Shown here piece by piece: positions 24,553 through 39,270 of a DNA stretch of 64,000 nucleotides. The notes beneath the pieces were generated by a model that saw only the letters and a program-made list of their open reading frames with translations, was not told the DNA's origin and ran no database searches. This DNA is from Clostridia bacterium (GTDB lineage: Bacteria; Bacillota; Clostridia; Oscillospirales; CAG-272). Within the stretch, counting starts at the first letter, position 1. Every line of letters begins with the position of its first letter. The stretch spans positions 6,418 through 70,417 of the forward strand of contig JAFTMG010000007.1 of NCBI GenBank assembly GCA_017452525.1, written 5' to 3'. The position numbers were made by a program, and so were the translations under genes.

Positions 24553-24675
24553 AATACGCCTCCCAAAAGAGATATTTACGAAATGTCGATGGGTCTATTG
24601 TAGCATACTTTTTTGACTTTTTCAATATAAAATGGGAAATCTTGTCGAGTTCTCTGGAGACTTTTCGGGGTTGAG

Positions 24676-25443
24676 TTATTTGGCATTCTTCCGATACTCC
24701 GCCGGTGTTTGTCCGACGGCTTCCCGGAATCGTTTGCCGAAATAGCTGGGGCTGTCAAAGCCGCACATCCGACCCACCTTTTCGATGGGATCGGTGCCGT
24801 ATTTGAGAACTCGTTTGGCTTTGGCGATGCGGATGCGGTTCAGATCGTCCATGACCGTCACGCCGCGCTCGCTTTTATAGGTGCGGCAGAGGGTAAAACG
24901 GTCCACGGAAAATTCGTCGGCAATGTCGTAGAGCGTCAGCGGCTCGGAATAACGCTGCTCCAACATCTGTAAAACGCGGGTCGAAAGGGTATCGGCAGAG
25001 GAAAGAATGGTGGAAAACAGCTCCGTCACATAGGCATAGCCTGCCGCAGAGCGGGAGAGCAGGGTACTTTTGCCGTTGGCGTGTGCCATCAGGTGTGCGG
25101 TCTCGCGATCCAGATAAGGCGGGACGGTGAAGCGCAGATACTCACCCACGCCGAGATAATCCAGCGTTTTCGGCGAAAGGGTAAAGGTGCACCACGCGGT
25201 ATGGAAGGGCTTGCCTTCATAGCTGTGCGGCACGTTGGCGCGCATAAAAACGCCCTCGCCGACGCCAAGCGTGAACCGTTCGCCCGCAATCTCAAAGCAT
25301 CCGCTGCCCTCCTTGACCCAAATGAATTGATGATGGTTAAAGCCTTCGGGGCGGTGAACGGGAATTTGTTTGACGCTTTCCCCGAGTGTGGTCAGCACGA
25401 AGGGAAGCTCAATTTCTCTGTTTTTGTGTATCTCTGCAAACAT
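24676..25443 (-). CDS. AraC family transcriptional regulator
   Basis: Cupin N-terminus plus an AraC HTH C-terminus (IADEFSVDRFTLCRTYK..GFDSPSYFGKRFREAVGQTPAEYRK). Confidence 0.85.
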   Translation of the reverse strand: MFAEIHKNREIELPFVLTTLGESVKQIPVHRPEGFNHHQFIWVKEGSGCFEIAGERFTLGVGEGVFMRANVPHSYEGKPFHTAWCTFTLSPKTLDYLGVGEYLRFTVPPYLDRETAHLMAHANGKSTLLSRSAAGYAYVTELFSTILSSADTLSTRVLQMLEQRYSEPLTLYDIADEFSVDRFTLCRTYKSERGVTVMDDLNRIRIAKAKRVLKYGTDPIEKVGRMCGFDSPSYFGKRFREAVGQTPAEYRKNAK

Positions 25444-25585
25444 TTTACAATATCCTTATATCCAAAACAATAATTTGTCATTGATTTTTGATTTTCATTG
25501 CAATATAATTATATCAAAGCATGGGGTGAAAGTAAACCCCGAAAATCAAAAAATATTGCCGTTTTTATGCGGCGAGGAGGTTATT

Positions 25586-26596
25586 ATGGGAAAGATCAGA
25601 TTGGGTCTCATTGGTTGCGGCGGCCGTGCCAAAGCACATATGAAGAGTTGGGTCAAAATGGAGAATGTCGCCGTCGTTGCTGTGGCAGATCCCATTGAGG
25701 AGCGCCGCGTCGCCGCTGCTCAGATGTTTGGCTGCACCAATATCTATGCCAACCACACCGAGCTGTATGACAATTGCGCAAAGGAGCTTGACGCTGTCAT
25801 CATTTGCGTTGAGCCTACCGCGCATGCCGATATCGAGCTTCGCGCCATCGAGCTGGGCATCCCCTTTTTGGTAGAGAAGCCGATGACGCTGGATCTTGAT
25901 TTCGCAGACCGTATTGCGGCAGGCGTTAAAGAGAAGAATCTGATCACCTGTGTTGGCTTCCAGGACAGATATCAGGATCTGACCGATATTATTAAGGAAG
26001 AAATGCCTAAGCACAAGCCGGGCGGCTTGGTTTGGGGCTCCTGGGTCGGCGGTATTCCCGGTGTTTGGTGGTGGCAGAAGAAGGATGACTGCGGCGGTCA
26101 GCTGGTGGAGCAGAATATCCACCTTCTGGACGAGCTTCGCTATCTCTTCGGCGAGCCGCTCTCCGTTTATGCTACCGCGTCCCGCGGCATCGTCAAGGCA
26201 GGCGAGGGGGCATCGGCTGAGTACGACACCGATGACCACTCCACCGCAGTCTTCCGTTTCCCCAATAACGTCACCGCGACTCTGGTCAGCGGCTGTTACA
26301 TCAAGCCTCAGCAGAATGCCCGCCGTCCCCGTTGCGGTCTCTATATCACGCTGGAGGATATCATTTTTGACTACCGTCTGCGCAACAATCTGATCATTGA
26401 GACGCCTGCCGAGACCAGAGACATCCCGCGCAAGGCAGACCAGACCGAGACGCTGGACGTCGCTTTCATCAAGGCGCTGGAAACGGGCGACAGAAGCCTC
26501 ATCCGCTCCGATTATGAGGACGCGCTCAAGAGCCTGAAGATCTGCTTTGCCGCCAACAAGTCCATGGAGACGGGCGAAGTGATTTATTTTGACTGA
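25586..26596 (+). CDS. Gfo/Idh/MocA family oxidoreductase
   Basis: Start trimmed to MGKIRLGLIGCGGRAKAH after a gaggagg RBS. Rossmann fold plus the family C-terminal domain. Confidence 0.85.
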   Translation: MGKIRLGLIGCGGRAKAHMKSWVKMENVAVVAVADPIEERRVAAAQMFGCTNIYANHTELYDNCAKELDAVIICVEPTAHADIELRAIELGIPFLVEKPMTLDLDFADRIAAGVKEKNLITCVGFQDRYQDLTDIIKEEMPKHKPGGLVWGSWVGGIPGVWWWQKKDDCGGQLVEQNIHLLDELRYLFGEPLSVYATASRGIVKAGEGASAEYDTDDHSTAVFRFPNNVTATLVSGCYIKPQQNARRPRCGLYITLEDIIFDYRLRNNLIIETPAETRDIPRKADQTETLDVAFIKALETGDRSLIRSDYEDALKSLKICFAANKSMETGEVIYFD

Positions 26597-26610
26597 GGAG
26601 GATGTGCCGT

Positions 26611-27366
26611 ATGAGATTTTGTGTTGCCGTTCCTTGTTTTTTCAAGGGTGTGGATTTTTGTGACGCACTCCGTCAGATCGCCGCTCTCGGCTACGATGCC
26701 GCCGAGACCTACAATTGGAAGAGCCTTGATCTGGATGCTGTCAAGAAGACCATCTACGAGACCGGTGTGGAGCTGCTCAGCATGTGTACCACCGATTTCC
26801 GTCTGACCGAGCCCGAGTGCCGCCAGATCTGGCTGGACGGTCTGCTGGAGAGCTGTATTGCCGCGCAGAAGCTCGGTGTACACCGTCTGATCACGCAGGT
26901 CGGCAAGGATACGGGCGCGCCCCGCGAGGAGCAGCATGCCTCCATCGTGGCAGGCTTGAAGGCTGCGGGCCCGATCCTTGAGAAATACGACGTCACCATT
27001 ATGATCGAGCCGCTGAATACCTACGTCAACCATCCCGGTTATTATCTGTGGTCGTCTGTGGAGGCGTTTGAGATCATTCGCGAGGTCGATCATCCCAACG
27101 TCAAGGTGATCTACGATATCTACCATCAGCAGGTTATGGAAGGGAATATCATTCCGAATATCACCAAGAACCTTGATTGCATTGCGCATCTGCATGCCGC
27201 GGGTCACCCGGGTCGCAATGAGATGCAGTACGGCGAAAGCGATTACAAAAATATCATCAAAGCCGTGGATGCAGCCGGATATACCGGCGCGCTGGGTCTG
27301 GAATACCGCCCGCTACTCGATCCCATCGAGAGCCTGAAGTCGGTCAAGGAGATCTACGGTCAATAA
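26611..27366 (+). CDS. sugar phosphate isomerase/epimerase (xylose-isomerase-like TIM barrel; hydroxypyruvate-isomerase-like)
   Basis: Family layout, with IEPLN and HLHAAGHPGRNE motifs. ATG at 26611, 9 nt after gaggagg. Confidence 0.75.
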   Translation: MRFCVAVPCFFKGVDFCDALRQIAALGYDAAETYNWKSLDLDAVKKTIYETGVELLSMCTTDFRLTEPECRQIWLDGLLESCIAAQKLGVHRLITQVGKDTGAPREEQHASIVAGLKAAGPILEKYDVTIMIEPLNTYVNHPGYYLWSSVEAFEIIREVDHPNVKVIYDIYHQQVMEGNIIPNITKNLDCIAHLHAAGHPGRNEMQYGESDYKNIIKAVDAAGYTGALGLEYRPLLDPIESLKSVKEIYGQ

Positions 27367-27486
27367 GCTGTTGGGGCGGATCCTTCGGGATCAGCCCCTT
27401 TTTATGAGGGAAGTTTCGAAATCGTATTGTAAACTTTTTCATTGGGTGTTATAATATAGATATATCGGGATCCGGGGGAGGCACGT

Positions 27487-28239
27487 ATGAATATAGATCG
27501 GCTTTTGCGTGAAATTTCTGAAGCTTACAGGCAGATCCTCGGCGACCGCCTGGTCGGTATCTACGTACATGGCTCCATAGCCTTCGGGTGCTTTGATCCG
27601 CGGGTCAGCGATATCGATTTTCTTGTCGTGGTAGATCGTCCGATATCCCTGCAGCAAAAAACAGCATTGATCGAGGTTCTTCTGTCGCGTGAGCCCCATG
27701 CCCCGCCGAAGGGGTTTGAGATGAGTGTCGTATTGAGGGGCGTGTGTGATCCCTTTGTTTATCCCACGCCGTACGAGCTTCATTATTCCGCCGCCTATGC
27801 GGCGGCGGCGCGGGAGGATCTTGTACGATACTGCGAGGGGATGCACGGTATTGATAGGGATCTTGCGGCACACGTCACCGTAACGAGAGCGGTGGGGCTG
27901 GTCCTTTGCGGCAAACCGATCGGCGAGGTGTTTGGTGAAGTGCCGCGCGAAGACTATCTGGACAGCATCCGTTTCGACGTGGAAAATGCGGCGGAGGATA
28001 TTTCCGAGCATCCGGTGTACGTTATCTTGAATTTGTGCCGCGTTGCGGCATTTTTGAGAGAGGGACTTGTCATCTCCAAAAAGGACGGCGGAGCGTGGGG
28101 ATCGTCTCATTTGCCCGCGGTGTATCGCCCCGTGATCCGGTCGGCGTTGTACGCCTATACCGAAGGGCGGCCGTATGAGAAAAATGAATCGATTGAGCAG
28201 AAGTTCGCGGCGATGATGCTTGCCGAGATCTTTGCATGA
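27487..28239 (+). CDS. aminoglycoside-adenylyltransferase-like nucleotidyltransferase (NTase domain plus DUF4111-like C-terminus)
   Basis: GIYVHGSIAFGCFDPRVSDIDFLVVV is the G-S..D-x-D nucleotidyltransferase motif. Length and C-terminal half resemble the AadA/ANT(3'')/ANT(9) family. Confidence 0.65.
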   Translation: MNIDRLLREISEAYRQILGDRLVGIYVHGSIAFGCFDPRVSDIDFLVVVDRPISLQQKTALIEVLLSREPHAPPKGFEMSVVLRGVCDPFVYPTPYELHYSAAYAAAAREDLVRYCEGMHGIDRDLAAHVTVTRAVGLVLCGKPIGEVFGEVPREDYLDSIRFDVENAAEDISEHPVYVILNLCRVAAFLREGLVISKKDGGAWGSSHLPAVYRPVIRSALYAYTEGRPYEKNESIEQKFAAMMLAEIFA

Positions 28240-28252
28240 AAGGGTGTTTTTT

Positions 28253-29431
28253 ATGAATTATCGCTTGGATCAGAAAGGAAATTCGCTTTCCATTCTCGGC
28301 TTTGGCTGTATGCGCTTTCCTATGAAAATGGGAAAGATCGATATGGAATCGACCGAGCGGCTGGTCATGACCGCGATTCGCGAGGGGGTCAACTATTTTG
28401 ATACTGCCTATATCTATCCCGGAAGCGAAGCGGCACTGGGAGAGATCTTAGAGAAAAACGGCGTGCGGGATCGGGTCAATATCGCCACCAAGCTCCCCCA
28501 TTATCTGATCAAGAGCAGGGAAGATATGGAGAAGAAATTCACCGAGGAGCTGCGGCGCCTGCGTACCGATCACGTAGACTATTATCTGATGCACATGCTG
28601 ACCGATACGGCTACGTGGGATCGCCTGTGTGCCTTGGGCATCAAGGAATGGCTTGCTGAAAAGCTGGCAAGCGGCGCCATCCGGCAGGTTGGGTTTTCTT
28701 ACCACGGCAACACCGAGATGTTCTGCAAGTTGGTGGACGTGTACGATTGGAATTTCTGCATGATCCAATATAACTATATGGATGAGCATTCCCAAGCGGG
28801 GCGGCGCGGTCTGCATTACGCCCATGAAAAGGGTCTGCCGGTGATGATCATGGAGCCGCTGCGCGGCGGTAAGCTGGTCAGCCATCTCCCCGAGGAGGCA
28901 AAGCGTATTTTCGCAGAATATCCGGTGCGGCATACCCCTGCGGGGTGGGCATTCCGTTGGCTGTGGAATCAGCCGGAGGTGACGGTCGTTCTCTCGGGAA
29001 TGAATTCCGATGATATGCTGCGGGAGAATATCAAAACGGCGTCGAGCGTACAGGTTGGTGAGCTCAGCGAGCGTGAAGAGAAGATGCTGCAGGACGTGGT
29101 CAAGGCCATCAATTCCAAAATGAAGGTAGGCTGTACCGGCTGCGGCTACTGTATGCCGTGCCCGAAAAACGTGGACATTCCCGGTACCTTCGCCGCCTAT
29201 AACCGCCGTTTTTCGGAGGGCAAGTTCTGGGCGCTGGTTGATTACGCAATCTGTACCACCCTGCGCGAAAACGTCACCACGCCCGCCAATTGCATCGGCT
29301 GCGGCAAATGTGAGAAGCATTGCCCTCAGCATATTGAGATCCGCGCCCGCCTCAAGGACGCGCAAAAAGAGCTGGAGGTGCCGATCTACCGCTTTTTCCG
29401 TAAGGTCGCCAAAAAGATCACCAAGTTTTGA
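28253..29431 (+). CDS. aldo/keto reductase with a C-terminal 4Fe-4S ferredoxin-type domain
   Basis: LGFGCMRFP, YFDTAYIY, DYYLMH AKR motifs. Two Cys clusters: CTGCGYCMPCP and CIGCGKCEKHCP. Confidence 0.85.
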   Translation: MNYRLDQKGNSLSILGFGCMRFPMKMGKIDMESTERLVMTAIREGVNYFDTAYIYPGSEAALGEILEKNGVRDRVNIATKLPHYLIKSREDMEKKFTEELRRLRTDHVDYYLMHMLTDTATWDRLCALGIKEWLAEKLASGAIRQVGFSYHGNTEMFCKLVDVYDWNFCMIQYNYMDEHSQAGRRGLHYAHEKGLPVMIMEPLRGGKLVSHLPEEAKRIFAEYPVRHTPAGWAFRWLWNQPEVTVVLSGMNSDDMLRENIKTASSVQVGELSEREEKMLQDVVKAINSKMKVGCTGCGYCMPCPKNVDIPGTFAAYNRRFSEGKFWALVDYAICTTLRENVTTPANCIGCGKCEKHCPQHIEIRARLKDAQKELEVPIYRFFRKVAKKITKF

Positions 29432-29522
29432 AAAGAGCAGGGAACCGCCGCGCGGAATTGCCCGATATCTCATAATGTCGAACAATTTAATCAATTCCGC
29501 ACGGCGAATCGCGCCCAAAACC

Positions 29523-29552
29523 TTGACAAAACCGCCTCCGGTGTGGTATAAT
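29523..29552 (+). promoter_or_regulatory. promoter for tRNA-Pro (TTGACA, 18-nt spacer, TGn-TATAAT)
   Basis: -35 at 29523..29528 and extended -10 tggTATAAT at 29544..29552, about 25 nt upstream of the tRNA 5-prime end. Confidence 0.6.
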
Positions 29553-29577
29553 ATTCAAGTATGAAAAAATATATTTT

Positions 29578-29653
29578 CGGGGTGTGGCGCAGTTGGTAGC
29601 GCGCGACGTTTGGGACGTCGATGCCGCAGGTTCGAATCCTGTCACTCCGACCA
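29578..29653 (+). tRNA. tRNA-Pro (anticodon TGG), CCA encoded
   Basis: Folded by hand. Acceptor CGGGGTG/CACTCCG (one G-T), D-arm GCGC/GCGC, anticodon stem CGACG/CGTCG with loop TTTGGGA (TGG), T-arm GCAGG-TTCGAAT-CCTGT, discriminator A plus CCA. 76 nt. Confidence 0.92.
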
Positions 29654-29665
29654 CATGAAAATAAT

Positions 29666-29710
29666 CCGAACATTCTCCTCTTTGGAGAGTCGTTCGGGTT
29701 ATTTGTTTTA
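29666..29710 (+). terminator. terminator hairpin after tRNA-Pro
   Basis: ccgaac..(inner ctcc/ggag)..gttcgg, followed by the T-rich ttatttgttttattt. Confidence 0.6.
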
Positions 29711-29748
29711 TTTGAGTATCCCAATTTTAATAGCAAGAAATGAAAATA

Positions 29749-29782
29749 GCCGATACCACGGTCTTTTGACTATGGTATCGGC
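29749..29782. other. 10-bp perfect inverted repeat (gccgatacca N14 tggtatcggc) between the tRNA and the AbiH-like promoter
   Basis: Read directly. No T-run follows, so it may be an operator or an island-boundary relic rather than a terminator. Confidence 0.4.
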
Positions 29783-29792
29783 ATTTGTATTG

Positions 29793-29821
29793 TTGAAAAA
29801 GACACAAATTTATGATATAAT
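29793..29821 (+). promoter_or_regulatory. sigma-A-type promoter for the AbiH-like operon (TTGAAA-17-TATAAT, TGn-extended)
   Basis: -35 at 29793..29798, -10 at 29816..29821 (tgaTATAAT). Confidence 0.6.
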
Positions 29822-29857
29822 ATAAAAAACATCAAAGAAGCGGAAGGAAGTGATGGT

Positions 29858-30733
29858 GTGACATTTTATGTTCTTGGCAACGGCTTCGATTTGCATTATG
29901 GTTTACCCACAAGGTATTGTGATTTTAAGAAATATCTTATTATAAACGGATATCGCGAAATAGTAGAAAGAGTCGATGATCTGTTCTGGAGATTCGGTCA
30001 TTACTGTCCGAAAGATATTAAAGAGTGGTCAACGTTCGAAGATATGCTTATGGTATTTAATGACCTGGACCCGGATGAGTTGTACGAAGAGGCATTTGAC
30101 AATGCTGAAACGGATGATGACAGAGCCGGATATTGGGATAGTCCTTCTTGGAATGTAAATTTCTATAATGAGTATATCAAGGTATTAAAGGGTGAGTTTG
30201 ATAATTGGATTAGAGAAATGAATACAGAAATCATACCGGATAGGTATTTTAATCCAGTTCCGGGAGATGCGGTTTTAACCTTTAATTATACCACTACAGT
30301 CGAAGATAATTTTGATACAAGAGGAATTCAGATAACTCATATTCATGGAACAAAAAATCAAGAGATCGTGCTGGGACATAACGATGTCCCGAATCCTAAC
30401 TTGTATAACGTAATCGAAGACGAGGATTCCGATTATAGGGATACTACCACAAGAAATGCTATTAACGACGTCCTTGCACAAGCTTCTCAAAATTATTACA
30501 AAGATAGTGTGCGAATTCTTCAAAGAAACAGTCGTATATTCTCACAAATATCCCGATTTAACAAAGTCGTTATAATGGGTCTGTCGTGCGGTCTACAAGA
30601 CGAAATGTACGTCGAAGAAATCATAAGATATGCTTCTACTATCGACTTCTATTATTATGATGACGATGCAAAGGAAAACTTCGATGACATTTTGGACAAT
30701 TATAATGTTACCGTAAATTATTATAAATGGTAA
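29858..30733 (+). CDS. AbiH-like abortive-infection family protein
   Basis: GTG start 7 nt after a ggaaggaag RBS. The N-terminus FYVLGNGFDLHYGLPTRYCDF matches the hallmark I-x-GNGFD-L-x-x-GL-x-T-x-Y-x-x-F start of AbiH (Pfam Abi_H, from memory). Also a mid-protein HIHG motif, a late IMGLSCG..D..Y motif, and AT-rich codon usage. Confidence 0.75.
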   Translation: MTFYVLGNGFDLHYGLPTRYCDFKKYLIINGYREIVERVDDLFWRFGHYCPKDIKEWSTFEDMLMVFNDLDPDELYEEAFDNAETDDDRAGYWDSPSWNVNFYNEYIKVLKGEFDNWIREMNTEIIPDRYFNPVPGDAVLTFNYTTTVEDNFDTRGIQITHIHGTKNQEIVLGHNDVPNPNLYNVIEDEDSDYRDTTTRNAINDVLAQASQNYYKDSVRILQRNSRIFSQISRFNKVVIMGLSCGLQDEMYVEEIIRYASTIDFYYYDDDAKENFDDILDNYNVTVNYYKW

Positions 30734-30748
30734 AAACATATGTGAGGT

Positions 30749-31402
30749 ATGAATAAATTGAAAAATGAAATAATAAATACAACGTGTTCTTGGCTATCTT
30801 TGGGAATTCCGTGCATAACTCCGATTAAAGATACCGTAGAGGCAATACACTCCATTTATGACCAGGTGTTGTTTGATAAATTGGCTTATGTACTCTCAAA
30901 TCAAGAGAGTGATTTTGATGACTGGTTAAAGATATCAGAAAAATTTGATGAAGATAATAAAGCTTATAACAAAATGGTAAAACAACTTATCTATTATATA
31001 AATGCAATGAATGAAACGGATTTGCTCTTTGCATTTTCCAATTTATTAAGAGCATATAAGTGCGGATTGATTTGTAAAAATGATTTCTTCAGACTCGGAT
31101 TTTGTCTTACCAAGCTATTAGCGGAAGATGCTCAATACTTATCAAATAATATCAGCAAAGGTAGCATAGAGGAAAATATTTATTGCATATCACTGAGCAA
31201 TAATGGTTTAATGTATAACAGATCTCGTGGCTTTTCTGATAGTGAATCTGATGCGGAAAAAGAATTTTATAGTTTTACACAGATGGGTAAAATGTTGGAT
31301 AAATATGCTCTGAATTTTGGCAATGAAGAACGTTATAATTATAAAGAAGTGGATAATATTATTATTCAAGGTGTCGCAGAGCACGTTTTGAAGAAACTAT
31401 AA
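30749..31402 (+). CDS. hypothetical protein (217 aa, predicted mostly helical, no assignable family)
   Basis: Clean ORF 15 nt after the AbiH-like stop, with the same AT-rich composition. No TM helices and no catalytic motif I recognise. Confidence 0.65.
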   Translation: MNKLKNEIINTTCSWLSLGIPCITPIKDTVEAIHSIYDQVLFDKLAYVLSNQESDFDDWLKISEKFDEDNKAYNKMVKQLIYYINAMNETDLLFAFSNLLRAYKCGLICKNDFFRLGFCLTKLLAEDAQYLSNNISKGSIEENIYCISLSNNGLMYNRSRGFSDSESDAEKEFYSFTQMGKMLDKYALNFGNEERYNYKEVDNIIIQGVAEHVLKKL

Positions 31403-31417
31403 TTGCTTGAGAGGTAA

Positions 31418-32125
31418 TTGCTTTTGATTATTAAAGGTTCAACATCGAATTTTATATCCTTCTCTGCAGATATTGATCTAATTAATGATTTGCAAGAAAA
31501 CGCAAAGAAACAACTCACGGATATGGGTTACAAAGATCTCAATCCGAAAGATTATTTGAATACTTACTTTAATGTAAAGAAAAGAAAAATCATCCCAACA
31601 CCACGCACCATACACAAATCGGATGTCTTTTGTTGTCCAAGGGGCTATGAATCCCCACTCAAAGAGATTGAAAAGCATATCACTAACGGTGATGATTTAA
31701 CGCCATATATGAGCAAATCTATAGATAAAGGTGATTTTTATGATAGTCTTCTTTATGATTGGAATATCCAACATCTACACTTAGGTAGTATAGTTCCAAG
31801 CGAGAAGTTCGTTTCACGAAGCAATTATTTACTTTTCGTATTCTTTACAGAAAAAGACGCATATTTTATTCAAATATATCCACATAAAGAGAAATATGTT
31901 TTTGCCAAAGACGAAATGATGCACATTATAGATCGTAATTGGAGTGGTTTAATCAGCCGCTTTTCAATAAATGGAATTTTATCTGAAACCATCACGGACA
32001 AGGATCGCGCCATGTTGAGGAAATGCGGAATATCAACATTTACAGATATGGGAAACGGAAAGATATATGGTAATATTGGTGGAGGGTATGCGTCCAATGG
32101 AATATCGATCCTCCTTGTGTTTTGA
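31418..32125 (+). CDS. hypothetical protein (about 233-235 aa, no assignable family)
   Basis: Starts at TTG 31418 or TTG 31424 after a gagagg RBS, 15 nt after the upstream stop. Contains a distinctive LLYDWNIQHLHLG segment. I cannot assign a family. Confidence 0.6.
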   Translation: MLLIIKGSTSNFISFSADIDLINDLQENAKKQLTDMGYKDLNPKDYLNTYFNVKKRKIIPTPRTIHKSDVFCCPRGYESPLKEIEKHITNGDDLTPYMSKSIDKGDFYDSLLYDWNIQHLHLGSIVPSEKFVSRSNYLLFVFFTEKDAYFIQIYPHKEKYVFAKDEMMHIIDRNWSGLISRFSINGILSETITDKDRAMLRKCGISTFTDMGNGKIYGNIGGGYASNGISILLVF

Positions 32126-32133
32126 TTGCGGTT

Positions 32134-32205
32134 TTATTGTAACACGAAAGTAGAGTCCTGTCCGTGACTTTTGTCACAAGCTGCTTTGCGTTTGCTGATA
32201 TGTAG
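32134..32205. repeat. direct repeat copy A (about 70 bp), carrying a cGTGA-N6-TCACa palindrome
   Basis: The first 46 nt (ttattgtaacacgaaagTagagtcctgtccgtgacttttgtcacaa) match 32921..32966 with one mismatch. Similarity continues, with a 4-nt indel, to about 32205 / 32990. Confidence 0.85.
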
Positions 32206-32280
32206 CCTTTGCCTTAACTGCTCGAGTGAGAGTTCACCGTTTTTCTTCATTCTTCCGTACCCCTTATTCTGTGTATTAAA

Positions 32281-32305
32281 TAGGGCGCAGCAAAGCCGCA
32301 CCCTA
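32281..32305 (-). terminator. probable terminator hairpin for the 137-aa gene
   Basis: tagggcgc..gcacccta arms (7 of 8 pairs) immediately after the stop at 32310. A/T-rich tail on the minus strand. Confidence 0.4.
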
Positions 32306-32309
32306 TAAC

Positions 32310-32723
32310 TTATGTATAATATTTGATTTCTAGCGTAGAAGAATAGCCACTTTCGGTAGAGTGTATAACAACATCCCCATGCTTCATGCAGTGTCGCATA
32401 GCATTGCATACCATAGGATAAGATCTCTTGAGATTCAAACCATTGTGAACATCTCTCGCAACAATTACAATGCTTGATTTGCCATCATTTCTAGCACTTT
32501 CAATCATTCGGTTGATATGAAATCTTATAGCCTCTGTGGTTATTTTCTTCTCTTTTTTAGATTCAGGCATACTTTCGCTGATTTCTATATCCCAATCATC
32601 ATCGAAAGCATCATCTTCATCAAATACACCCTCTTGAATGAGTCGTTTTTCCATTTTGTTGATTCGCTTCTCTAAAATTTTTACTTTTGCTAATAATTCT
32701 ACAATGATAGTATCGTAATTCAT
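32310..32723 (-). CDS. hypothetical protein (137 aa): N-terminal coiled-coil-like helix, acidic linker, small C-terminal globular domain
   Basis: aggaggta RBS, consensus promoter, AT-rich. The N-terminus LLAKVKILEKRINKMEKRLIQE is heptad-like. DEDDAFDDDWDIEISE is an acidic stretch. The C-terminal VARDVHNGLNLKRSYPMVCNAMRH domain is unassigned. Confidence 0.7.
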   Translation of the reverse strand: MNYDTIIVELLAKVKILEKRINKMEKRLIQEGVFDEDDAFDDDWDIEISESMPESKKEKKITTEAIRFHINRMIESARNDGKSSIVIVARDVHNGLNLKRSYPMVCNAMRHCMKHGDVVIHSTESGYSSTLEIKYYT

Positions 32724-32822
32724 AGAATTCTACCTCCTTTTTTTAAAATTCTATCATATTAAGTAGAATTTGTCAATAGAATTTTTAGAATTTTAATAGA
32801 ATTTGTATAGAATTTCTATTCT
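32723..32822 (-). repeat. array of AAATTCTA / TAGAATTT repeats (five phased direct copies plus inverted copies and two TAGAA(A)TTCTA palindromes)
   Basis: Plus-strand tagaatt at 32723, 32764, 32777, 32786, 32797 and 32808 (spacings 13, 9, 11, 11). Inverted aattcta at 32747. Palindromes tagaattcta (32723..32732) and tagaaattcta (about 32808..32818). Confidence 0.85.
32748..32776 (-). promoter_or_regulatory. consensus promoter for the 137-aa gene (minus strand TTGACA-17-TAGAAT, TGn-extended)
   Basis: -35 is the reverse complement of 32771..32776; -10 is the reverse complement of 32748..32753. Both are embedded in the AAATTCTA repeat array. Confidence 0.65.
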
Positions 32823-32920
32823 GATGATTTGTTTCGGACAAAAAGTGTTCATTTTCGACTTATATCTTTGTTTAATGCGGTGTAATTTTTATACACCGCA
32901 TTTGCCTTACTCGTCCTTGC

Positions 32921-32990
32921 TTATTGTAACACGAAAGCAGAGTCCTGTCCGTGACTTTTGTCACAAACGGCTTTGTGTTGATATGTGGCA
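32921..32990. repeat. direct repeat copy B (about 70 bp), overlapping the native promoter region of the CoADR operon
   Basis: See copy A. Copy B also contains the -35 element of the downstream promoter. Confidence 0.85.
32950..32965. promoter_or_regulatory. CRP/FNR- or Rex-like palindrome cGTGActtttgTCACa upstream of the -35
   Basis: 16-bp dyad matching TGTGA-N6-TCACA at 9 of 10 half-site positions. An identical copy is at 32163..32178. Confidence 0.5.
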
Positions 32991-33006
32991 CAAAATATGA
33001 TATAAT
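32978..33006 (+). promoter_or_regulatory. promoter of the CoADR-trx-rhodanese operon (TTGATA-17-TATAAT, TGn-extended)
   Basis: -35 at 32978..32983, -10 at 33001..33006 (tgaTATAAT). Confidence 0.6.
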
Positions 33007-33024
33007 ATTCTTGTAATACGCTTG

Positions 33025-33040
33025 AGTGACAAAAGTCACA
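33025..33040. promoter_or_regulatory. second palindrome aGTGAcaaaagTCACa, downstream of the -10 (operator position)
   Basis: Same half-sites as 32950..32965 with a complementary spacer. Centred about 20 nt downstream of the predicted start site. Confidence 0.5.
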
Positions 33041-33099
33041 GCGGACACGAAAAAGGTATGGTAAAATATACTCACAGAAAGAAAAACGGAGGTAAACTT

Positions 33100-34782
33100 A
33101 TGAAGACCTTGATCATAGGAGGCGTGGCAGGCGGTGCATCCTGCGCGGCAAGACTCAGACGACTTGATGAGAAAGCTGAGATCGTTATTTTGGAGCGCGG
33201 AGAGTATATTTCCTTCGCCAACTGCGGACTTCCTTATTATATCGGCGGAGAGATCACCGAAAAATCCAACCTCACATTGCAAACACCGGAGAGCTTCAAG
33301 GCTCGTTTTAATATTGACGTTCACACTTTCAGCGAGGCGGTTGCCATAGATGCAGAAAACAAGACTGTGACGGTCAAAGATCTGACAACAGGCGAGGAAT
33401 ACACCGAGCGATACGACAGCTTGGTTCTTTCTCCGGGAGCTTCTCCCATTCGTCCGGACATTGAGGGAATCGACAGCGAAAAGGTATTCACCCTTCGTAA
33501 CATTCCCGACACGCTAAAAATCAAGCGGTATATAGAGGAAAGCCATCCAAAATCGGCGGTGGTCGTAGGCGGTGGATATATCGGAGTGGAGATGGCTGAA
33601 AATCTTGCCAACGCAGGGCTTGACGTGACCATTGTGGAGCTATCCGACCATCTCATCGCTCCTCTTGATTTTGATATGGCGGCGGACGTACACAGATATG
33701 TTAAGGGGCAGGGCATCAAACTTGCACTTGGTAACGGCGTTGTTGCCATCAAGGAACGCGATGACTCTCTGACGGTTGTATTGAATAAGGGGGCAATAGA
33801 AGCAGATATGGTTCTCCTGTCCGTAGGCGTTCGCCCCGATACCGCCTTTATCAAGTCAGCCGGAATTGAAACAAACGAACGCGGCAGTATTATCGTGAAT
33901 GAGAGAATGCAAACGAACGTTCCCAATATTTACGCCGTGGGTGATGCGGTAACCGTCAAGAATTTCGTAACGGGTGAGCCGTCCTTCATTCCGCTTGCAG
34001 GTCCTGCCAACAAGCAAGGGCGCATCACGGCAGACAATATCTGCGGTATTCTCTCGGAATACAAGGGTACGCAAGGCTCGTCGGTGCTGAAGCTCTTTGA
34101 TATGACGGTCGCTACCACGGGTCTGAACGAAAAGAGCGCGGCTGCCGCAGGCTACGATTATGATAAGACCTACACCTATTCCGCATCCCACGCATCCTAT
34201 TATCCGGGTGCGTCTATGATGTCGGTCAAGGTGTTATGGGACAAGGCAACGCACAAGATCCTCGGTGCGCAGATCGTGGGTTTTGATGGGGTGGATAAGC
34301 GTATGGACGTGATCGCCACCGCCATGCGGCTCGGCGCGAAAGTGACCGACCTTGCAGAACTCGAGCTTTGCTATGCGCCGCCCTTCGGCTCTGCCAAAGA
34401 TCCCGTGAATATGGTAGGATTTGTTGCTGAAAACGTCATCACGGGCAAGATTGGGCAGTTCTTTTGGCACGACGTGGAAAAGCTCCCACGCGACGGAAGC
34501 GTGACGTTGCTTGATACTCGCACAAACACCGAGGTCTCTCGCGGCAAAATCGAAGGCTTTATGCACATTCCGCTTGACTCGTTGCGTGAGCGCATCGACG
34601 AGATTCCCAAGGGAAAGCCCGTGTACGTGCATTGTCACTCAGGACTTCGCTCCTATATCGCTTGCCGCATCCTCGTTGGAAACGGATTTGAATGCTACAA
34701 TCTCGCAGGCGGATGGAGGCTCTATGAGTCGGTCATCCATGAAAGAACGGTGCCTGAGTATATCTGCACCGAATGCAAATAA
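33100..34782 (+). CDS. CoA-disulfide reductase / NADH-oxidase-family flavoprotein with a C-terminal rhodanese domain
   Basis: Start trimmed to MKTLIIGGVAGGASCAARL after a ggaggt RBS. Redox Cys motif SFANCGLPY, a second dinucleotide fold VVVGGGYIGVE, and the rhodanese active-site loop VHCHSGLRS. Confidence 0.88.
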   Translation: MKTLIIGGVAGGASCAARLRRLDEKAEIVILERGEYISFANCGLPYYIGGEITEKSNLTLQTPESFKARFNIDVHTFSEAVAIDAENKTVTVKDLTTGEEYTERYDSLVLSPGASPIRPDIEGIDSEKVFTLRNIPDTLKIKRYIEESHPKSAVVVGGGYIGVEMAENLANAGLDVTIVELSDHLIAPLDFDMAADVHRYVKGQGIKLALGNGVVAIKERDDSLTVVLNKGAIEADMVLLSVGVRPDTAFIKSAGIETNERGSIIVNERMQTNVPNIYAVGDAVTVKNFVTGEPSFIPLAGPANKQGRITADNICGILSEYKGTQGSSVLKLFDMTVATTGLNEKSAAAAGYDYDKTYTYSASHASYYPGASMMSVKVLWDKATHKILGAQIVGFDGVDKRMDVIATAMRLGAKVTDLAELELCYAPPFGSAKDPVNMVGFVAENVITGKIGQFFWHDVEKLPRDGSVTLLDTRTNTEVSRGKIEGFMHIPLDSLRERIDEIPKGKPVYVHCHSGLRSYIACRILVGNGFECYNLAGGWRLYESVIHERTVPEYICTECK

Positions 34783-34799
34783 AAACGGAGGTATATCTT

Positions 34800-35102
34800 A
34801 TGTCAGTACAAAAACTGAATCAAAATAATTTTAATAACGCAATCGCAAACGGCACGACTCTCGTGGATTTCTACGCCGATTGGTGCGGACCTTGCCGTAT
34901 GGTTTCTCCCATCGTGGACGAGATCGCCGAGGAAAGAAGCGATATTACCGTTGGCAAGGTAAACGTAGACGACGAAAACGCCCTTGCTATGAAATACGGC
35001 GTGATGAGTATTCCCACGCTGATCGTCTTTCAGGACGGAAAAGAAAAAACAAGAATCGTCGGAGCAAGACCCAAAGCCGCCATTCTTGCGGAGCTTGTGT
35101 AA
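34800..35102 (+). CDS. trxA: thioredoxin
   Basis: WCGPC active site. About 100 aa. ggaggt RBS. Confidence 0.92.
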   Translation: MSVQKLNQNNFNNAIANGTTLVDFYADWCGPCRMVSPIVDEIAEERSDITVGKVNVDDENALAMKYGVMSIPTLIVFQDGKEKTRIVGARPKAAILAELV

Positions 35103-35497
35103 TGAAGCGCATTTTAGGCGCCTTATTGGCTGTGCTGATGCTCACTTCTCAGCTTATAGGCTGCAACGGTGGTAATCATAAAAAAGTCTACGAGCAGATC
35201 ACGCCTGCCGAGGCAAAAGCGCTTATGGATAGCGAGGAAGGATACATTATTCTCGATGTACGTACCGAAGCGGAGTTTGCCGAGGGACACATTGAAGGCG
35301 CGATCCTGATTCCCGACTATGAGATTGGTGAGAAAGCAGAAAGCATATTAACCGACAAGGAACAGCTGATCCTCGTTTATTGTCGAAGCGGCAGGAGAAG
35401 TAAAAATGCCGCCAATGAGCTTGCGATGTTAGGCTATACGAATATTAAAGAGTTCGGCGGTATTATGGATTGGAAATACGGAACTGTAACAGAATAA
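35102..35497 (+). CDS. rhodanese-like lipoprotein
   Basis: TAATG overlap with trx. Signal peptide with lipobox LIGC. Rhodanese loop VYCRSGRRS. Confidence 0.85.
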   Translation: MKRILGALLAVLMLTSQLIGCNGGNHKKVYEQITPAEAKALMDSEEGYIILDVRTEAEFAEGHIEGAILIPDYEIGEKAESILTDKEQLILVYCRSGRRSKNAANELAMLGYTNIKEFGGIMDWKYGTVTE

Positions 35498-35504
35498 TCG
35501 CATA

Positions 35505-35548
35505 AAAGATCAAAGCCACGGCTCGTTTGAGCCGTGGCTTTGATCTTT
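35505..35548. terminator. bidirectional terminator (20-bp perfect stem)
   Basis: aaagatcaaagccacggctc-gttt-gagccgtggctttgatcttt, between convergent genes. Confidence 0.85.
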
Positions 35549-36213
35549 TAGTATGCAAGTTTTTGGAGTTTCTTTTTATCCTTGATCACGATACCTTTTC
35601 TCGTGACCTCAATAAGTCTGTCGGAAGCGAGGTGCTTTAACATTCTCGTAACCACCTCACGGGCAGTTCCAAGGTGCCGCGCAATTGTTTCGTGTGTCAG
35701 CGTGACGGTATCCGTTCCGTTTGCCTGCGTTTCTTCAAGAAGAAAGATGGCAAGGCGCTTATCCATACTCATAAAAACGACCTGTTGCATGATCCACATC
35801 ACGTCCGAAAAGCGTCCGACGGCAGTTTCAAGGGCGTAATTTTTCACTTCAAGATAGCGGGAACTAATGTCACCGAAAGCCGCGCTGCTGATACGGTAGC
35901 AATCGCTTGGAACTTCGGCATCCACATATACGTCAAAAGTGATACTGTTCAACACGCACGAAGCGGATAACATACAGATATCACCGGGCACAAGGCGATA
36001 GAGTGTGATCTCCTTGCCGTCCTCCGAGAGCATATACAGGCGCAATCTGCCCGAGCGCACAATAAATAGCCCCGAGCATCCCATATTGTCGTGAACGGGC
36101 TGTTCCTTGTCAAAGTGTTCCTCTGCGGTATTCTCACACAGATGGTTTTTATCTTCTTCCTTTAGTGCTTTCCAGAACGGAAAGTATTGTTCGTAGAAGG
36201 CGTGTAAAGACAT
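35548..36213 (-). CDS. Crp/Fnr family transcriptional regulator
   Basis: Start trimmed to MSLHAFYEQYFPFW. cNMP-binding-like beta-roll (GLFIVRSGRLRLY..EDGKEITLYRL) and a C-terminal HTH (THETIARHLGTAREVVTRMLKHL). Confidence 0.88.
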   Translation of the reverse strand: MSLHAFYEQYFPFWKALKEEDKNHLCENTAEEHFDKEQPVHDNMGCSGLFIVRSGRLRLYMLSEDGKEITLYRLVPGDICMLSASCVLNSITFDVYVDAEVPSDCYRISSAAFGDISSRYLEVKNYALETAVGRFSDVMWIMQQVVFMSMDKRLAIFLLEETQANGTDTVTLTHETIARHLGTAREVVTRMLKHLASDRLIEVTRKGIVIKDKKKLQKLAY

Positions 36214-36408
36214 ATATCTCCGTCCTTTCATGATTTTGTTTTTACTATTATACCATATTTTTATAAATTTTTCAACCGATTTGGCTTTTCTTTGCTTCCT
36301 CCGATGCAATTTTTGAGGTCTGACGGTGGATTTCCATCAGACTCTTCACGTTCTGCCACATTCCTTCGTCCCTCGGCACGCTTTGCTTCGATCTGATCCC
36401 CCGAGCCG

Positions 36409-36588
36409 ATGCTGCGCTTTTTCTCATCGGACGAGGAGGTCATCCGCATCGGCATTACCGCATTCCGCATGATCGGTTGGAGCTTCTTGCCGCTTGTTAC
36501 ATCATTGACCTATCCCGTACTTTTCCAAGCGGTGGGGCAGCCCGTGAAAAGTTCGGTTCTGACGGTGATCCGTACGGTGATACTATAA
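36409..36588 (+). pseudogene. remnant of a MATE-family efflux transporter (59-codon internal/C-proximal fragment)
   Basis: My translation: MLRFFSSDEEVIRIGITAFRMIGWSFLPLVTSLTYPVLFQAVGQPVKSSVLTVIRTVIL*. It resembles the MATE segment ..lF..d.eVi..g..yl.i......f......f.QalG.. An in-frame stop lies just upstream, and no TM11-12 follow. Confidence 0.4.
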
Positions 36589-36645
36589 ATCCAACTTTTT
36601 CATCGGATGCTTTCTTTGACTACTGCGACTAAATTTTTGACATGT

Positions 36646-36678
36646 AAAATCACCGCCAAATTATTTGACGGTGATTTG
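36646..36678. terminator. terminator hairpin downstream of the Mn-catalase gene
   Basis: atcaccg..cggtgat stem flanked by A/T runs. Confidence 0.5.
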
Positions 36679-36684
36679 GAATAC

Positions 36685-37347
36685 TTACTTGAAAGCTGGT
36701 GCATGGGTTTCGTTGTTAGCGAAAGTATTGGGTCCGGGATTGGAAAGTGAAAAATACATTTTTGCCGCTTTCGTCGTACCGAAATCACGGTTCGAGCCCG
36801 TTTCCTGTACCTTGTTGAAGGCATCACGGAACATCTGATTGTGCGCTTCCTCGCGGTTGAGGAGAAAATCGATGGTCTCTCGGACTTTCTTATCCTCAAT
36901 CTGACGGTAGAGATACTCGTAAACCACCTTGGCTCTCTGCTCGGATGCGATGTTGGAAAGCAGGTCGGCACACAGGTCACCCGTGACGGTGACGTAATCT
37001 CCCGTCCACGAATATCCGGAGGAGTTGATCAATCCGGGATTCAGACCGAGCAGAACGTGCGTCTGCACCTCACCTGCCTGTACTTTGGTTGCATCCACGT
37101 CGTGACCGTTGAGGAGATTGATGGTCTGCGCCACCATCTCCATGTGTCCCAGCTCCTCGGCTGCGATATCGAGAAAGAGATCCTTGATCTCGGGATCCTT
37201 GATCCGAAAGCTCTGCGACATATACTGCATTGCCGCCTTGAGCTCACCGTTACCGCCGCCGAGCTGCTCCTGAAGCAAAACCGCATACTGCGGATTCGGT
37301 CTTTCGACCTCTACGGGATGAAATAACTGCTTTTCATGTTTGAACAT
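36685..37347 (-). CDS. manganese catalase family protein (CotJC-like)
   Basis: PNPQYAVLLQEQLGGGNGELKAAMQYMSQSF and EELGHMEMV di-Mn ligand motifs. Confidence 0.9.
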   Translation of the reverse strand: MFKHEKQLFHPVEVERPNPQYAVLLQEQLGGGNGELKAAMQYMSQSFRIKDPEIKDLFLDIAAEELGHMEMVAQTINLLNGHDVDATKVQAGEVQTHVLLGLNPGLINSSGYSWTGDYVTVTGDLCADLLSNIASEQRAKVVYEYLYRQIEDKKVRETIDFLLNREEAHNQMFRDAFNKVQETGSNRDFGTTKAAKMYFSLSNPGPNTFANNETHAPAFK

Positions 37348-37558
37348 TGCAAATCTGACCTCCGTTTATGGATTTGATACTATGATTTCCCATAACGCGG
37401 GGAAATATACCGTGATCTTCTTTTATGATCTGTCGTGGGGGCATCGATCAGCTTGCCGTATTCGGTGAAGCGCCGTTGCTGTGTCTGTTTACCGGGATAC
37501 GACATAGTTTTTGTTTTTCGGAGGCTTTATTTATGCTTTTGTTTTATTTGTTCGAGAT

Positions 37559-37579
37559 TTTATGATATAATATAAAAAA
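37559..37579 (+). promoter_or_regulatory. extended -10 promoter (tgaTATAAT at 37563..37571) for the long sigma-like gene
   Basis: The 21-nt string tttatgatataatataaaaaa is identical to 29809..29829. The -35 is weak. Confidence 0.45.
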
Positions 37580-37624
37580 ATTCCAACCCGATCTCATTCT
37601 CGGTTACTCAATAGGCGAAACAAC

Positions 37625-39268: not shown

Positions 39269-39270
39269 AC

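Follow-up and report, generated by a model that had tools for sequence, protein, structure and literature searches.

The region analysed lies directly downstream of a tRNA-Pro(TGG) gene in a 64,000-nucleotide stretch of contig JAFTMG010000007.1 from a Clostridia bacterium, referred to here as the window, and its features are collected in Table 1. The initial annotation had described an abrupt fall in G+C content right after this tRNA gene, and the composition agreed with that description: G+C is 0.341 at positions 29654-32133, compared with 0.527 and 0.511 in the flanks (20000-29577 and 33022-43000, respectively), and single 60-nt lines range from 0.23 to 0.45 in the tract versus 0.42 to 0.67 at 28.5-29.4 kb. 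The AT-rich tract reaches approximately position 33020, beyond the third of the ORFs first described, and contains one more gene, ORF4, which is encoded on the minus strand. Across 29654-33020 the G+C content is approximately 0.34, as opposed to approximately 0.53 outside, and this is the sole tract of the window in which 1-kb G+C drops below 0.40. The island was correctly placed at the 3' side of the tRNA gene, and its boundary is located exactly at the tRNA 3' end. In an alignment of related loci (A3) the tRNA bodies vary, with both TGG and CGG isoacceptors and unlike acceptor stems, and conservation sets in at the tRNA-Pro 3' end, from the junction of ...CGACCA with CATGAAAATAATCC onward. 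An Rfam search of 29400-33200 returned only the tRNA above threshold; a SurA match in this interval was disregarded, as it scored 22.8 bits against a gathering score of 100.

Table 1. Features of the AT-rich tract downstream of tRNA-Pro and of its boundaries.
Feature	Position	Strand	Basis or description
tRNA-Pro(TGG)	29578..29653	+	ARAGORN; Rfam tRNA, 65.7 bits; 3' end is the left island boundary (attL-like junction)
First hairpin	29659..29704	+	RNA fold; strong hairpin then T-rich run, terminator-like; first island-borne insulator after the tRNA
Second hairpin	29744..29786	+	Inverted repeat I11, fold and alignment; followed by ATTTGTATTGTT, terminator-like; abuts the -35 hexamer
Promoter of the AbiH gene	29793..29821	+	Sigma-70-type, TTGAAA-17-TATAAT with extended TG; 11/12 positions match
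ORF1, intact AbiH-family gene	29858..30733	+	291 aa, GTG start; Pfam PF14253, PADLOC AbiH
Junction A/B	30735..30752	.	Last position homologous to AbiH-only loci, 30734; ORF2-family loci homologous from 30753 at the latest
ORF2, chimeric gene	30749..31402	+	Body (to 31354) from an uncharacterised ~220-aa family; last 16 codons from the 3' end of an S24 (LexA/CI-like) repressor gene
Fragment C	31352..32109	+	758-bp piece of a different element; 99.7% identical to positions 43-800 of locus L020, 92% to L019, 86% to L021
ORF3, 3'-truncated PD-T4-7-family gene	31418..32125	+	235 aa as listed, 233 aa from TTG 31424
59-nt direct repeat, copy 1	32134..32192	.	Family D1; holds palindrome GTGACTTTTGTCAC; starts 8 nt after the ORF3 stop
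ORF4, orphan gene	32310..32723	-	137 aa; lies between the two 59-nt repeats
59-nt direct repeat, copy 2	32921..32979	.	Directly upstream of the promoter of a CoA-disulfide-reductase/rhodanese gene; near the right end of the AT-rich tract

The RNA fold predicted for 29654-29800, which holds both terminator-like hairpins, has a free energy of -54.1 kcal/mol (z = -7.55), and none of 200 shuffled sequences was equally stable. The first hairpin is kept in loci L013, L014, L022 and L023. The consensus promoter that had been placed ahead of the three ORFs proved to be a near-consensus site, and four related loci have it unchanged. The three ORFs run in the same direction at the coordinates originally given, but the 15-nt gaps described between them become 24 and 21 nt when TTG starts are used for ORF2 (likely at 30758) and ORF3 (at 31424), as indicated by the gene calls on the same contig and by the N-termini of homologs. 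A purine-rich, Shine-Dalgarno-like run can be read in the sequence ahead of each ORF, and a terminator scan found only one weak terminator-like site, inside ORF2, with none convincing between the ORFs. Given the tight co-directional spacing, the purine-rich runs and the lack of a convincing terminator, co-transcription is likely; reading of ORF1-3 from one promoter, as originally proposed, is plausible and would be a by-product of the joints described below. With three co-directional genes at gaps of 15-24 nt that are likely to be co-transcribed, functional interaction is possible. At the right end of the tract, the two copies of the 59-nt direct repeat are 93% identical, and ORF4, for which family, PDB, plasmid and phage searches returned nothing, has a promoter of its own (32776-32748) embedded among TAGAATTT repeats.

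ORF1 had been considered AbiH-like because of its N-terminus, an HIHG motif and a late motif, and this assignment was upheld: on sequence grounds it is clearly a genuine AbiH-family protein. It matches Pfam PF14253 with 131.9 bits (GA 30.9, E = 5.7e-38), residues 4-259 aligning to profile positions 2-249 of 260, and it matches the PADLOC AbiH model with E = 1.3e-19. Homologs of ORF1 form 193 clusters, nearly all of 290-293 aa. In 32 aligned relatives with 46-85% identity to ORF1, G7-N8-G9-F10-D11 and H161-I162-H163-G164 are invariant and the late motif G241-L242-(S243)-C244-G245..D248..Y251 is conserved. Two invariant residues, Asn143 (FNYT) and His163 (HIHG), are approximately 20 residues apart, and we take this pair to be like the N...H catalytic pair of sirtuins. 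The AF2 model of ORF1 has a pLDDT of 89. A Foldseek search of this model against the PDB gave no significant match, the best being sirtuins at E 0.3-1.2 with TM-scores of 0.24-0.35, and a PDB sequence search with ORF1 returned nothing meaningful. NCBIfam gave no match for ORF1, ORF2, ORF3 or ORF4; in PHROGs AbiH matches an unnamed family only, and no member of this AbiH clade was present in viral contigs.

AbiH of Lactococcus lactis was reportedly described by Prevots et al. in 1996 and is catalogued in PADLOC as the single-gene system 'AbiH'. ORF1 resembles it in the near-full-length Pfam match and in the GNGFD, HxHG and GLSxG..D..Y motifs. However, ORF1 has 291 aa against 343 positions in the PADLOC profile, and its best stretch covers only profile positions 141-332, so it appears to belong to a short, divergent clade from Clostridia. 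AbiH has been classed with SIR2-like immune proteins, termed 'SIRim' (bioRxiv 10.1101/2024.09.18.613514), and it has been reported to resemble sirtuins and to be ICE-associated in lactococci (PMC13064643). This classification suggests that AbiH may consume NAD+ upon phage infection; the SIR2-like link is taken from the literature and not from our own Foldseek search, because the AbiH model gave no significant PDB match. As a working analogy we propose the SIR2-domain NAD+-depleting effectors, namely ThsA of Thoeris, DSR1/DSR2, SIR2-HerA and SIR2-pAgo, but unlike these AbiH is without a fused sensor domain (SLOG, HerA partner, Argonaute).

The relatives of ORF1 also stand alone. Close relatives are monocistronic and are followed by convergent genes, which on genomic evidence marks AbiH as a single-gene system, and it may act alone as an abortive-infection effector. 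In 11 loci these close relatives adjoin tRNA-Pro. The block that runs from the tRNA 3' end to the AbiH stop ends at that stop codon in other genomes, and usually the next gene is a convergent tyrosine integrase; such integrases, with a Phage_integrase domain and a SAM-like N-terminal domain, were found in L023, L024, L026, L029, L031 and L037, and in L026 an HTH_17 gene is adjacent to the integrase. As the AbiH block at tRNA-Pro (TGG or CGG) is usually followed in relatives by an integrase and an excisionase-type HTH gene, AbiH would be cargo between attL and int of elements that target tRNA-Pro. The integrative-element association is a further likeness to lactococcal AbiH (PMC13064643); the differences are that the ORF1 clade is fixed beside tRNA-Pro, and that here accreted genes follow and there is no integrase. 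The absence of a recombinase from this tRNA-adjacent hotspot, pointed out in the initial annotation, held for the whole window, in which no remnants of an integrase, excisionase or serine recombinase were detected, nor a second copy of the tRNA-Pro 3' end (attR). Since neither an integrase nor an att copy is present in the window, whereas relatives carry the integrase, the window copy appears to be a remnant.

ORF2 is a hybrid gene. Its tail, DNIIIQGVAEHVLKKL followed by a stop codon, is identical to the C-terminus of S24 peptidase genes in L019 and L020 and unlike that of all 22 aligned relatives (the homologs form 56 clusters), and the window copy is without the family-typical C-terminus, the conserved C-terminal residues being gone. 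No Pfam, PADLOC, NCBIfam, PHROG or PDB match was obtained for ORF2, PDB sequence searches with profiles of its family and superfamily found nothing meaningful, and Pfam, PADLOC and PHROGs gave only scattered single-member matches to 63 superfamily members. The family consists of ~220-aa all-helical proteins, and the wider superfamily comprises 200 representative clusters. The AF2 model of ORF2 has a pLDDT of 65, and a MarR-type winged-helix fold, to which most of the top Foldseek PDB matches belonged, was set aside as too weak (E ~0.1, TM-scores ~0.2-0.35). ORF2 was found at one locus only in GTDB genomes, and in none of the JGI metagenome collection, viral contigs, phage records and plasmids. 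One context of its relatives is 12 nt after a gene with a DEDDh-exonuclease domain (L002-4); another is a type I R-M operon, where the relative separates hsdS from hsdR and lies 2 nt after hsdS (L012). Relatives also occur alone in hotspots beside tmRNA, tRNA-Leu and recombinases. The anticodon nuclease PrrC is known from hsdS-hsdR gaps of this kind. Placement beside an effector-like gene and within a type I R-M operon is compatible with a role as a modular partner.

The second supposedly unassignable partner, ORF3, could be assigned. It matches two PADLOC models of PD-T4-7, a system that reportedly came from the E. coli pangenome selection of Vassallo et al. in 2022, with E-values of 2.4e-39 (PDLC04066) and 3.7e-37 (PDLC04065), covering only profile positions 8-235 of 337. 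A full-length relative of 325 aa (P0057), 98% identical, likewise matches both PD-T4-7 models (4.3e-44). The homologs of ORF3 form 26 clusters and are 300-340 aa long except for two fragments. ORF3 parallels P0057 to residue ~230 of 325 (...NGISI), then reads LLVF and stops, so that in comparison with full-length PD-T4-7 proteins (~300-340 aa) approximately 95 C-terminal residues, or ~29%, are missing. The related PD-T4-7-family copy in L021 is also disrupted, and the two disruptions suggest that genes of this family decay readily. ORF3 is probably a pseudogene and non-functional. A truncated PD-T4-7 product could, as a separate consideration, keep some activity. Plasmid-borne relatives of the PD-T4-7-like gene have only 24-34% identity, it was not present in viral contigs, and a PDB sequence search with full-length P0057 returned nothing meaningful. 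PD-T4-7 has been counted as one of the TA-like systems that protect by abortive infection (PMC9519451).

The origin of ORF3 can be seen in fragment C, which holds the 3' end of an S24 repressor gene, a spacer and the first ~230 codons (~70%) of the PD-T4-7-family gene, and which meets ORF2 at a 3-nt microhomology (GAT). Clostridial relatives of the PD-T4-7 family sit after a LexA-like S24 repressor gene, and the donor element already had the tight spacing now seen between ORF2 and ORF3. DNA homology to L022 and L023 (85%) covers 29578-30734 only, ending at the AbiH stop, and homology to L013-15 (95%), the closest relatives, covers 29577-31354 only; these relatives are without ORF3. The breakpoints at 30734/30735, 31352-31354 and 32109/32110 show that the three genes were not acquired as a single unit. 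Assemblies of three separate samples (L001, L102 and L103) all show this mosaic, and because both junctions are common to all three, an assembly chimera was ruled out and the arrangement is not an artefact. AbiH and ORF2 have stayed paired in two sub-lineages, L013-15 and that of the window.

Conserved linkage of ORF2 and ORF3 homologs to AbiH, on which the proposal of a multi-gene system depended, was not found. The survey of AbiH comprised 80 loci (L022-L101), of which 56 had at least 800 nt of downstream sequence and were informative. Tblastn detected no ORF2 relatives in the 80 loci; its only PD-T4-7-like match was an unrelated gene in L074, at a distance of 3 kb. L022-L101 gave no match to the HMM profiles for the family and superfamily of ORF2, and L002-12 and L016-18 gave none to the AbiH profile. 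AbiH is present in one of nine independent ORF2 contexts, the other eight being without it. Any two of the three genes are adjacent only in loci that are at least 95% identical in DNA (L001, L013-15 and L102-103).

Taken together, we consider it very probable that 29654-33020, at the 3' end of tRNA-Pro, is what remains, after decay and without an integrase, of cargo from an integrative element: a small defence islet built by successive recombination and not a three-component system. A self-contained monocistronic AbiH unit (module A), made up of the two terminator-like hairpins, its own promoter and the intact AbiH-family gene, would have been the starting point. ORF2, an independently mobile gene of an uncharacterised family (module B), may then have been appended downstream of AbiH in one lineage, and a fragment of another element (module C) would have overwritten the last ~16 codons of ORF2 and supplied the 5' 70% of a PD-T4-7-family gene; we infer this order of events. 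Like the defence cargo of tRNA-targeting elements (P2/P4-like hotspots, ICE cargo regions), the islet has its left boundary at the tRNA 3' end and a foreign composition, and relatives have the att junction on one side of the cargo gene and a convergent tyrosine integrase on the other. In contrast to such cargo, the integrase, excisionase and far att site are missing here, and illegitimate recombination at a 3-nt microhomology has reshaped the islet.

It is unlikely that the tract is an ordinary defence island in which two or three single-gene defences, namely AbiH, the ORF2-family gene and a shortened PD-T4-7 that is still active, each work independently. PADLOC has entries for both AbiH and PD-T4-7, solitary ORF2 relatives occur in tmRNA, tRNA-Leu and recombinase hotspots and a further one in the type I R-M operon, and the ORF3 frame is open for 233-235 codons behind a purine-rich run; however, ORF3 is without the ~29% of the protein present in nearly all full-length relatives and the L021 copy is disrupted too, while ORF2 has lost its conserved C-terminal residues and has neither catalogue (PADLOC) nor experimental support as a defence gene. 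It is distinctly improbable that AbiH and ORF2 make up a genuine two-gene system in this lineage, with ORF2 as regulator, sensor or antitoxin-like partner of a SIR2-like effector and ORF3 alone as debris. The two genes are co-directional with a gap of 15-24 nt and are kept together in L013-15 and the window lineage, the positions of ORF2 relatives behind the DEDDh-exonuclease-domain gene and hsdS suggest a module for different effectors, and the weak top structural matches of ORF2 are mostly to MarR-type winged-helix regulators. Against this, none of the 56 informative AbiH loci has a gene of the ORF2 family or superfamily, eight of the nine ORF2 contexts are without AbiH, homology with loci that have AbiH only breaks off exactly at the AbiH stop codon, the C-terminus typical of the family is gone from the ORF2 of the window, the structure matches are not significant, and the pairing, restricted to loci 95% identical in DNA, represents one evolutionary event. 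The earlier reading of the ORFs as one undescribed three-component anti-phage system, to which the single promoter, tight spacing, AT-rich tRNA-adjacent island and recurrence in three samples would be favourable, is scarcely tenable, since ORF3 belongs to a catalogued family and is truncated, recombination has left a scar at the ORF2/ORF3 joint with the tail of an unrelated S24 repressor gene in it, L013-15 are without ORF3 altogether, and outside near-identical copies no locus has any two of the genes adjacent.

What looked like a multi-gene system, from the tight spacing, the shared promoter and the AT-rich tRNA-adjacent island, is shown by the breakpoints to be an ordinary single-gene AbiH followed by recombination debris. 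The short-AbiH clade is consistently located between tRNA-Pro and an integrase in Clostridia, which adds to the ICE association published for lactococcal AbiH. A modest lead is offered by the ORF2 family, which recurs in defence and mobile contexts and could be screened as a candidate defence gene; we suggest only tentatively that it might be an undescribed type of gene associated with defence, working on its own or as a portable accessory module captured beside different effectors.

The G+C content directly behind tRNA-Pro(TGG) is 0.341 (29654-32133), below that of the 10-kb flanks (0.527 and 0.511), which bears out the abrupt drop described in the initial annotation. Nowhere else in the window does 1-kb G+C fall below 0.40, and the low-GC tract extends to approximately position 33020. 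The consensus promoter annotated in this tract was also upheld, and the region between it and the tRNA has a fold energy of -54.1 kcal/mol (z = -7.55) and contains two strong hairpins; both look like terminators that would insulate the island from tRNA read-through. The coordinates of the three downstream open reading frames (ORF1, ORF2 and ORF3) were confirmed, but not the 15-nt gaps between them, as source-contig gene calls and homolog N-termini favour TTG starts for ORF2 and ORF3 that give gaps of 24 and 21 nt. An assembly chimera was ruled out because the identical gene arrangement recurs in assemblies of three different samples (L001, L102 and L103), with 10 differences in 4747 positions between L103 and the window.

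Features of the island and of compared loci (window positions unless a locus is named)
Feature	Position	Strand	Remarks
tRNA-Pro(TGG)	29578-29653		sole tRNA of the window (ARAGORN); Rfam agrees
Hairpin 1 and T-rich run	29659-29704		between tRNA and promoter
Hairpin 2 and T-rich run	29744-29786		between tRNA and promoter
Promoter TTGAAA-17-TG-TATAAT	29793-29821	+	score 11/12; kept in related loci
ORF1	29858-30733	+	AbiH family
ORF2	30749-31402	+	favoured TTG start 30758
ORF3	31418-32125	+	favoured TTG start 31424
Module A	tRNA 3' end to AbiH stop		alignment to L022 and L023
Module B	ORF2 body, to 31354		DNA homology to L013-15
Module C	31352-32109		foreign fragment, 99.7% identical to L020 43-800
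59-nt direct repeat	32134-32192; 32921-32979		93% identical, 787 nt apart
Palindrome GTGACTTTTGTCAC	32164-32177; 32951-32964; 33026-33039		perfect; 0.02 expected by chance
ORF4	32310-32723	-	137 aa
ORF4 promoter TTGACA-17-TAGAAT	32776-32748		within at least five TAGAATTT repeats (region 32740-32820)
Promoter of CoADR-rhodanese / thioredoxin / rhodanese operon	32978-33006		flanked by two GTGACTTTTGTCAC copies
Crp/Fnr-family regulator gene	35548-36309	-	
Partial tRNA-Pro 5'-half copies	L026 4581-4618; L027 3181-3218; L030/L037 3476-3511 and 3697-3735		87-89% over 36-39 nt
S24 repressor and PD-T4-7-like genes	L019 1037-5084; L020; L021 6863-8483		21 nt apart
Defence island	L021 1-13587		
590-aa protein	L002-L004 6216-7988		ORF2-family gene 12 nt downstream
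Type I R-M operon	L012 2347-9792 (NZ_CAUWGY010000036.1)		HsdM, 295-aa unknown, HsdS, ORF2-family gene, HsdR

ORF1 is clearly an AbiH-family protein. It matched Pfam PF14253 over nearly the whole model (E = 5.7e-38; 131.9 bits, cut-off 30.9) and the PADLOC AbiH model (1.3e-19), confirming the AbiH-like assignment, and it showed all AbiH membership features open to assessment in silico. The motifs first quoted for it, GNGFD, HIHG and GLSCG..D..Y, proved invariant or nearly so across 32 relatives. Its homologs form 193 clusters, nearly all of 290-293 aa, and compared with known AbiH this clade is shorter, clostridial and tied to tRNA-Pro. The AF2 model of ORF1 was confident (pLDDT 89) and had no significant Foldseek match in the PDB; other Rossmann NAD-binding proteins came up alongside sirtuins, which reached E values of only 0.3-1.2. 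We infer a NADase mechanism for AbiH; the invariant residues N143 and H163, within FNYT and HIHG respectively, are a candidate sirtuin-type Asn/His pair.

In most of 11 tRNA-Pro-adjacent loci from other genomes (L013, L014, L022-27, L029, L030 and L037), some 200-280 nt separate tRNA-Pro from a close AbiH relative (59-86% identity) downstream; in L030 and L037 the distance is about 1.2 kb. These relatives are monocistronic. In L023, L024, L026, L029, L031 and L037 AbiH is directly followed by a convergent tyrosine integrase gene, whose product has a Phage_integrase and a SAM-like N-terminal domain, and in L026 an HTH_17 excisionase-type gene comes after it; reverse-strand ORFs with putative integrase-like sequence are present in L025, L027, L028 and L030. 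AbiH is therefore cargo of integrative elements that target tRNA-Pro, lodged between their attL and int, much as lactococcal AbiH has been described in association with ICEs (PMC13064643). Partial copies of the tRNA-Pro 5' half were seen just upstream of the intact tRNA-Pro preceding AbiH in four loci, and may have been left by repeated rounds of integration and excision, or may be an uncalled tRNA array. The islet in the window is a remnant of an integrative element. As initially noted for the islet, no recombinase was found: the window lacks integrase, excisionase and serine-recombinase remnants, and the tRNA 3' end occurs in it only once.

Three homology blocks, the AbiH unit (module A), the ORF2 body (B) and a foreign fragment (C), compose this islet, and the breakpoints between them are sharp. 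The AbiH genes of L022 and L023 are 85-86% identical to ORF1, and their alignment with the window spans only 29578, in the tRNA, to 30734. A five-way alignment shows conservation of all sequence starting with the terminal CGACCA, whereas the tRNA bodies vary (TGG or CGG isoacceptors, unlike acceptor stems); this sets the island boundary at the tRNA 3' end. L013-15 carry tRNA-Pro, AbiH and ORF2 in DNA 95% identical to the window and lack ORF3. This homology ends 48 nt short of the ORF2 stop, and ORF2 of L013-15 has a family-typical C-terminus (220 aa), followed by a hairpin resembling a terminator and by a convergent gene. Module C is also 92% identical to L019 and 86% to L021; in these two loci and L020, a LexA/CI-like Peptidase_S24 repressor gene precedes a PD-T4-7-like gene. 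The aberrant C-terminus of ORF2 in the window is exactly the last residues of the S24 repressor, DNIIIQGVAEHVLKKL and the stop, so ORF2 is a chimera, and the ORF2-ORF3 spacer is the donor's S24-to-PD-T4-7 spacer. The B/C joint has a 3-nt microhomology (GAT), and the other end of module C truncates ORF3, 24 nt before the first copy of a 59-nt direct repeat.

Initially called unassignable, ORF3 matched both PADLOC models of the catalogued PD-T4-7 (2.4e-39 and 3.7e-37), at profile positions 8-235 of 337 only. Its homologs (26 clusters) are 300-340 aa except for two fragments. ORF3 tracks P0057, a full-length PD-T4-7-like relative (325 aa, 98% identical), to YASNGISI and then terminates with LLVF and a stop; it therefore lacks about 95 C-terminal residues, or 29% of the protein, matching the PD-T4-7 family HMM but falling short of full length. 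PD-T4-7 is listed among the TA-like systems giving abortive-infection defence (PMC9519451). ORF3 is a probable pseudogene; L021 has a related copy that is likewise disrupted. The position of full-length clostridial PD-T4-7-like genes behind the S24 repressor gene, followed in L019 by a 290-aa unknown and then a serine recombinase, hints that the family is there part of a repressor-controlled mobile module, a linkage seen in three closely related loci without independent replication. L021 is a dense defence island, in which AAA_5 with a DUF2357/PDDEXK_7 gene (which looks McrBC-like), an HNH gene and a Ser/Thr kinase gene precede the S24 repressor, and an HTH gene, then CTD1, MComp1 and SMC-like ATPase genes, follow the disrupted PD-T4-7-like gene.

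At the right end of the tract, the 59-nt repeat brackets the orphan ORF4 and may be an att-like duplication that a further insertion left behind. Copy 1, within which the L001 contig terminates, starts 8 nt past the truncated ORF3, and copy 2 lies just upstream of the CoA-disulfide-reductase promoter. On inspection, the palindrome fits the TGTGA-N6-TCACA box type. ORF4 has an acidic middle, a possible N-terminal coiled coil and no match in Pfam, PADLOC, NCBIfam, PHROGs, PDB, plasmids or phages; the pattern of repeats around its promoter suggests operator sites.

AbiH and its two neighbours had been read as a plausible undescribed multi-gene anti-phage system. A scan of metagenome contigs for AbiH relatives gave 80 loci (16 at 49-86% identity and 64 at 24-31%), 56 of them with at least 800 nt downstream. 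By tblastn, none of these loci contained an ORF2 relative, and a PD-T4-7-like gene appeared in one, L074, at 3 kb from AbiH; profile HMM searches with the ORF2 family and superfamily were likewise negative in them. AbiH is present in one of nine independent ORF2 contexts, that of the window lineage. Conserved linkage was thus not found, and the proposed system fails on both points that would define it, as its genes neither co-occur independently nor were acquired as one unit. AbiH and the tRNA-linked island survive from the earlier interpretation, but the novel three-gene system does not, given the lack of co-occurrence and the internal breakpoints. The locus is very probably a stand-alone AbiH in an integrative-element remnant, accompanied by recombination debris.

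The novel residue of the locus is the ORF2 family, which as first reported is unassignable, with no match in Pfam, PADLOC, NCBIfam or PHROGs. Its homologs form 56 clusters (about 220 aa, 50-98% identity), and a profile search extended these to a superfamily of 200 representative clusters, almost all single-domain and 200-250 aa, for which no family assignment was obtained either. The ORF2 model was poor (pLDDT 65), and its top PDB matches (E of about 0.1), the majority of them winged-helix regulators of the MarR type, are at most a hint of such a fold. In the eight contexts lacking AbiH, ORF2 relatives occur behind a 590-aa protein with a DEDDh/RNase_T domain (L002-4), between three upstream serine-recombinase genes and a downstream Fic gene (L005-7), 158 nt after a tmRNA gene (L008), before an HTH_3 gene (L010), alone (L011 and L016), 93 nt after tRNA-Leu (L017) and, in a Ruthenibacterium MAG (L012), inside a type I R-M operon, in the interval from hsdS to hsdR. 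That operon contains two embedded, uncharacterised genes; gaps of 2 nt and 21 nt separate the ORF2 relative from hsdS upstream and hsdR downstream. The exonuclease domain of the 590-aa protein is central (PADLOC 'DEDDh, CAS-associated', 4e-14; Pfam RNase_T, 8.8e-5, just below cut-off), and the DEDDh/ORF2-family pair appears inserted in a VanZ-like gene, split in L003 and L004. Because it has been captured repeatedly in defence and mobile contexts (AbiH, the DEDDh-domain gene, the R-M operon interior, and tRNA and tmRNA hotspots), the ORF2 family is a reasonable, unproven candidate for a defence-associated gene, although we think it unlikely to be a new defence-associated gene or module.
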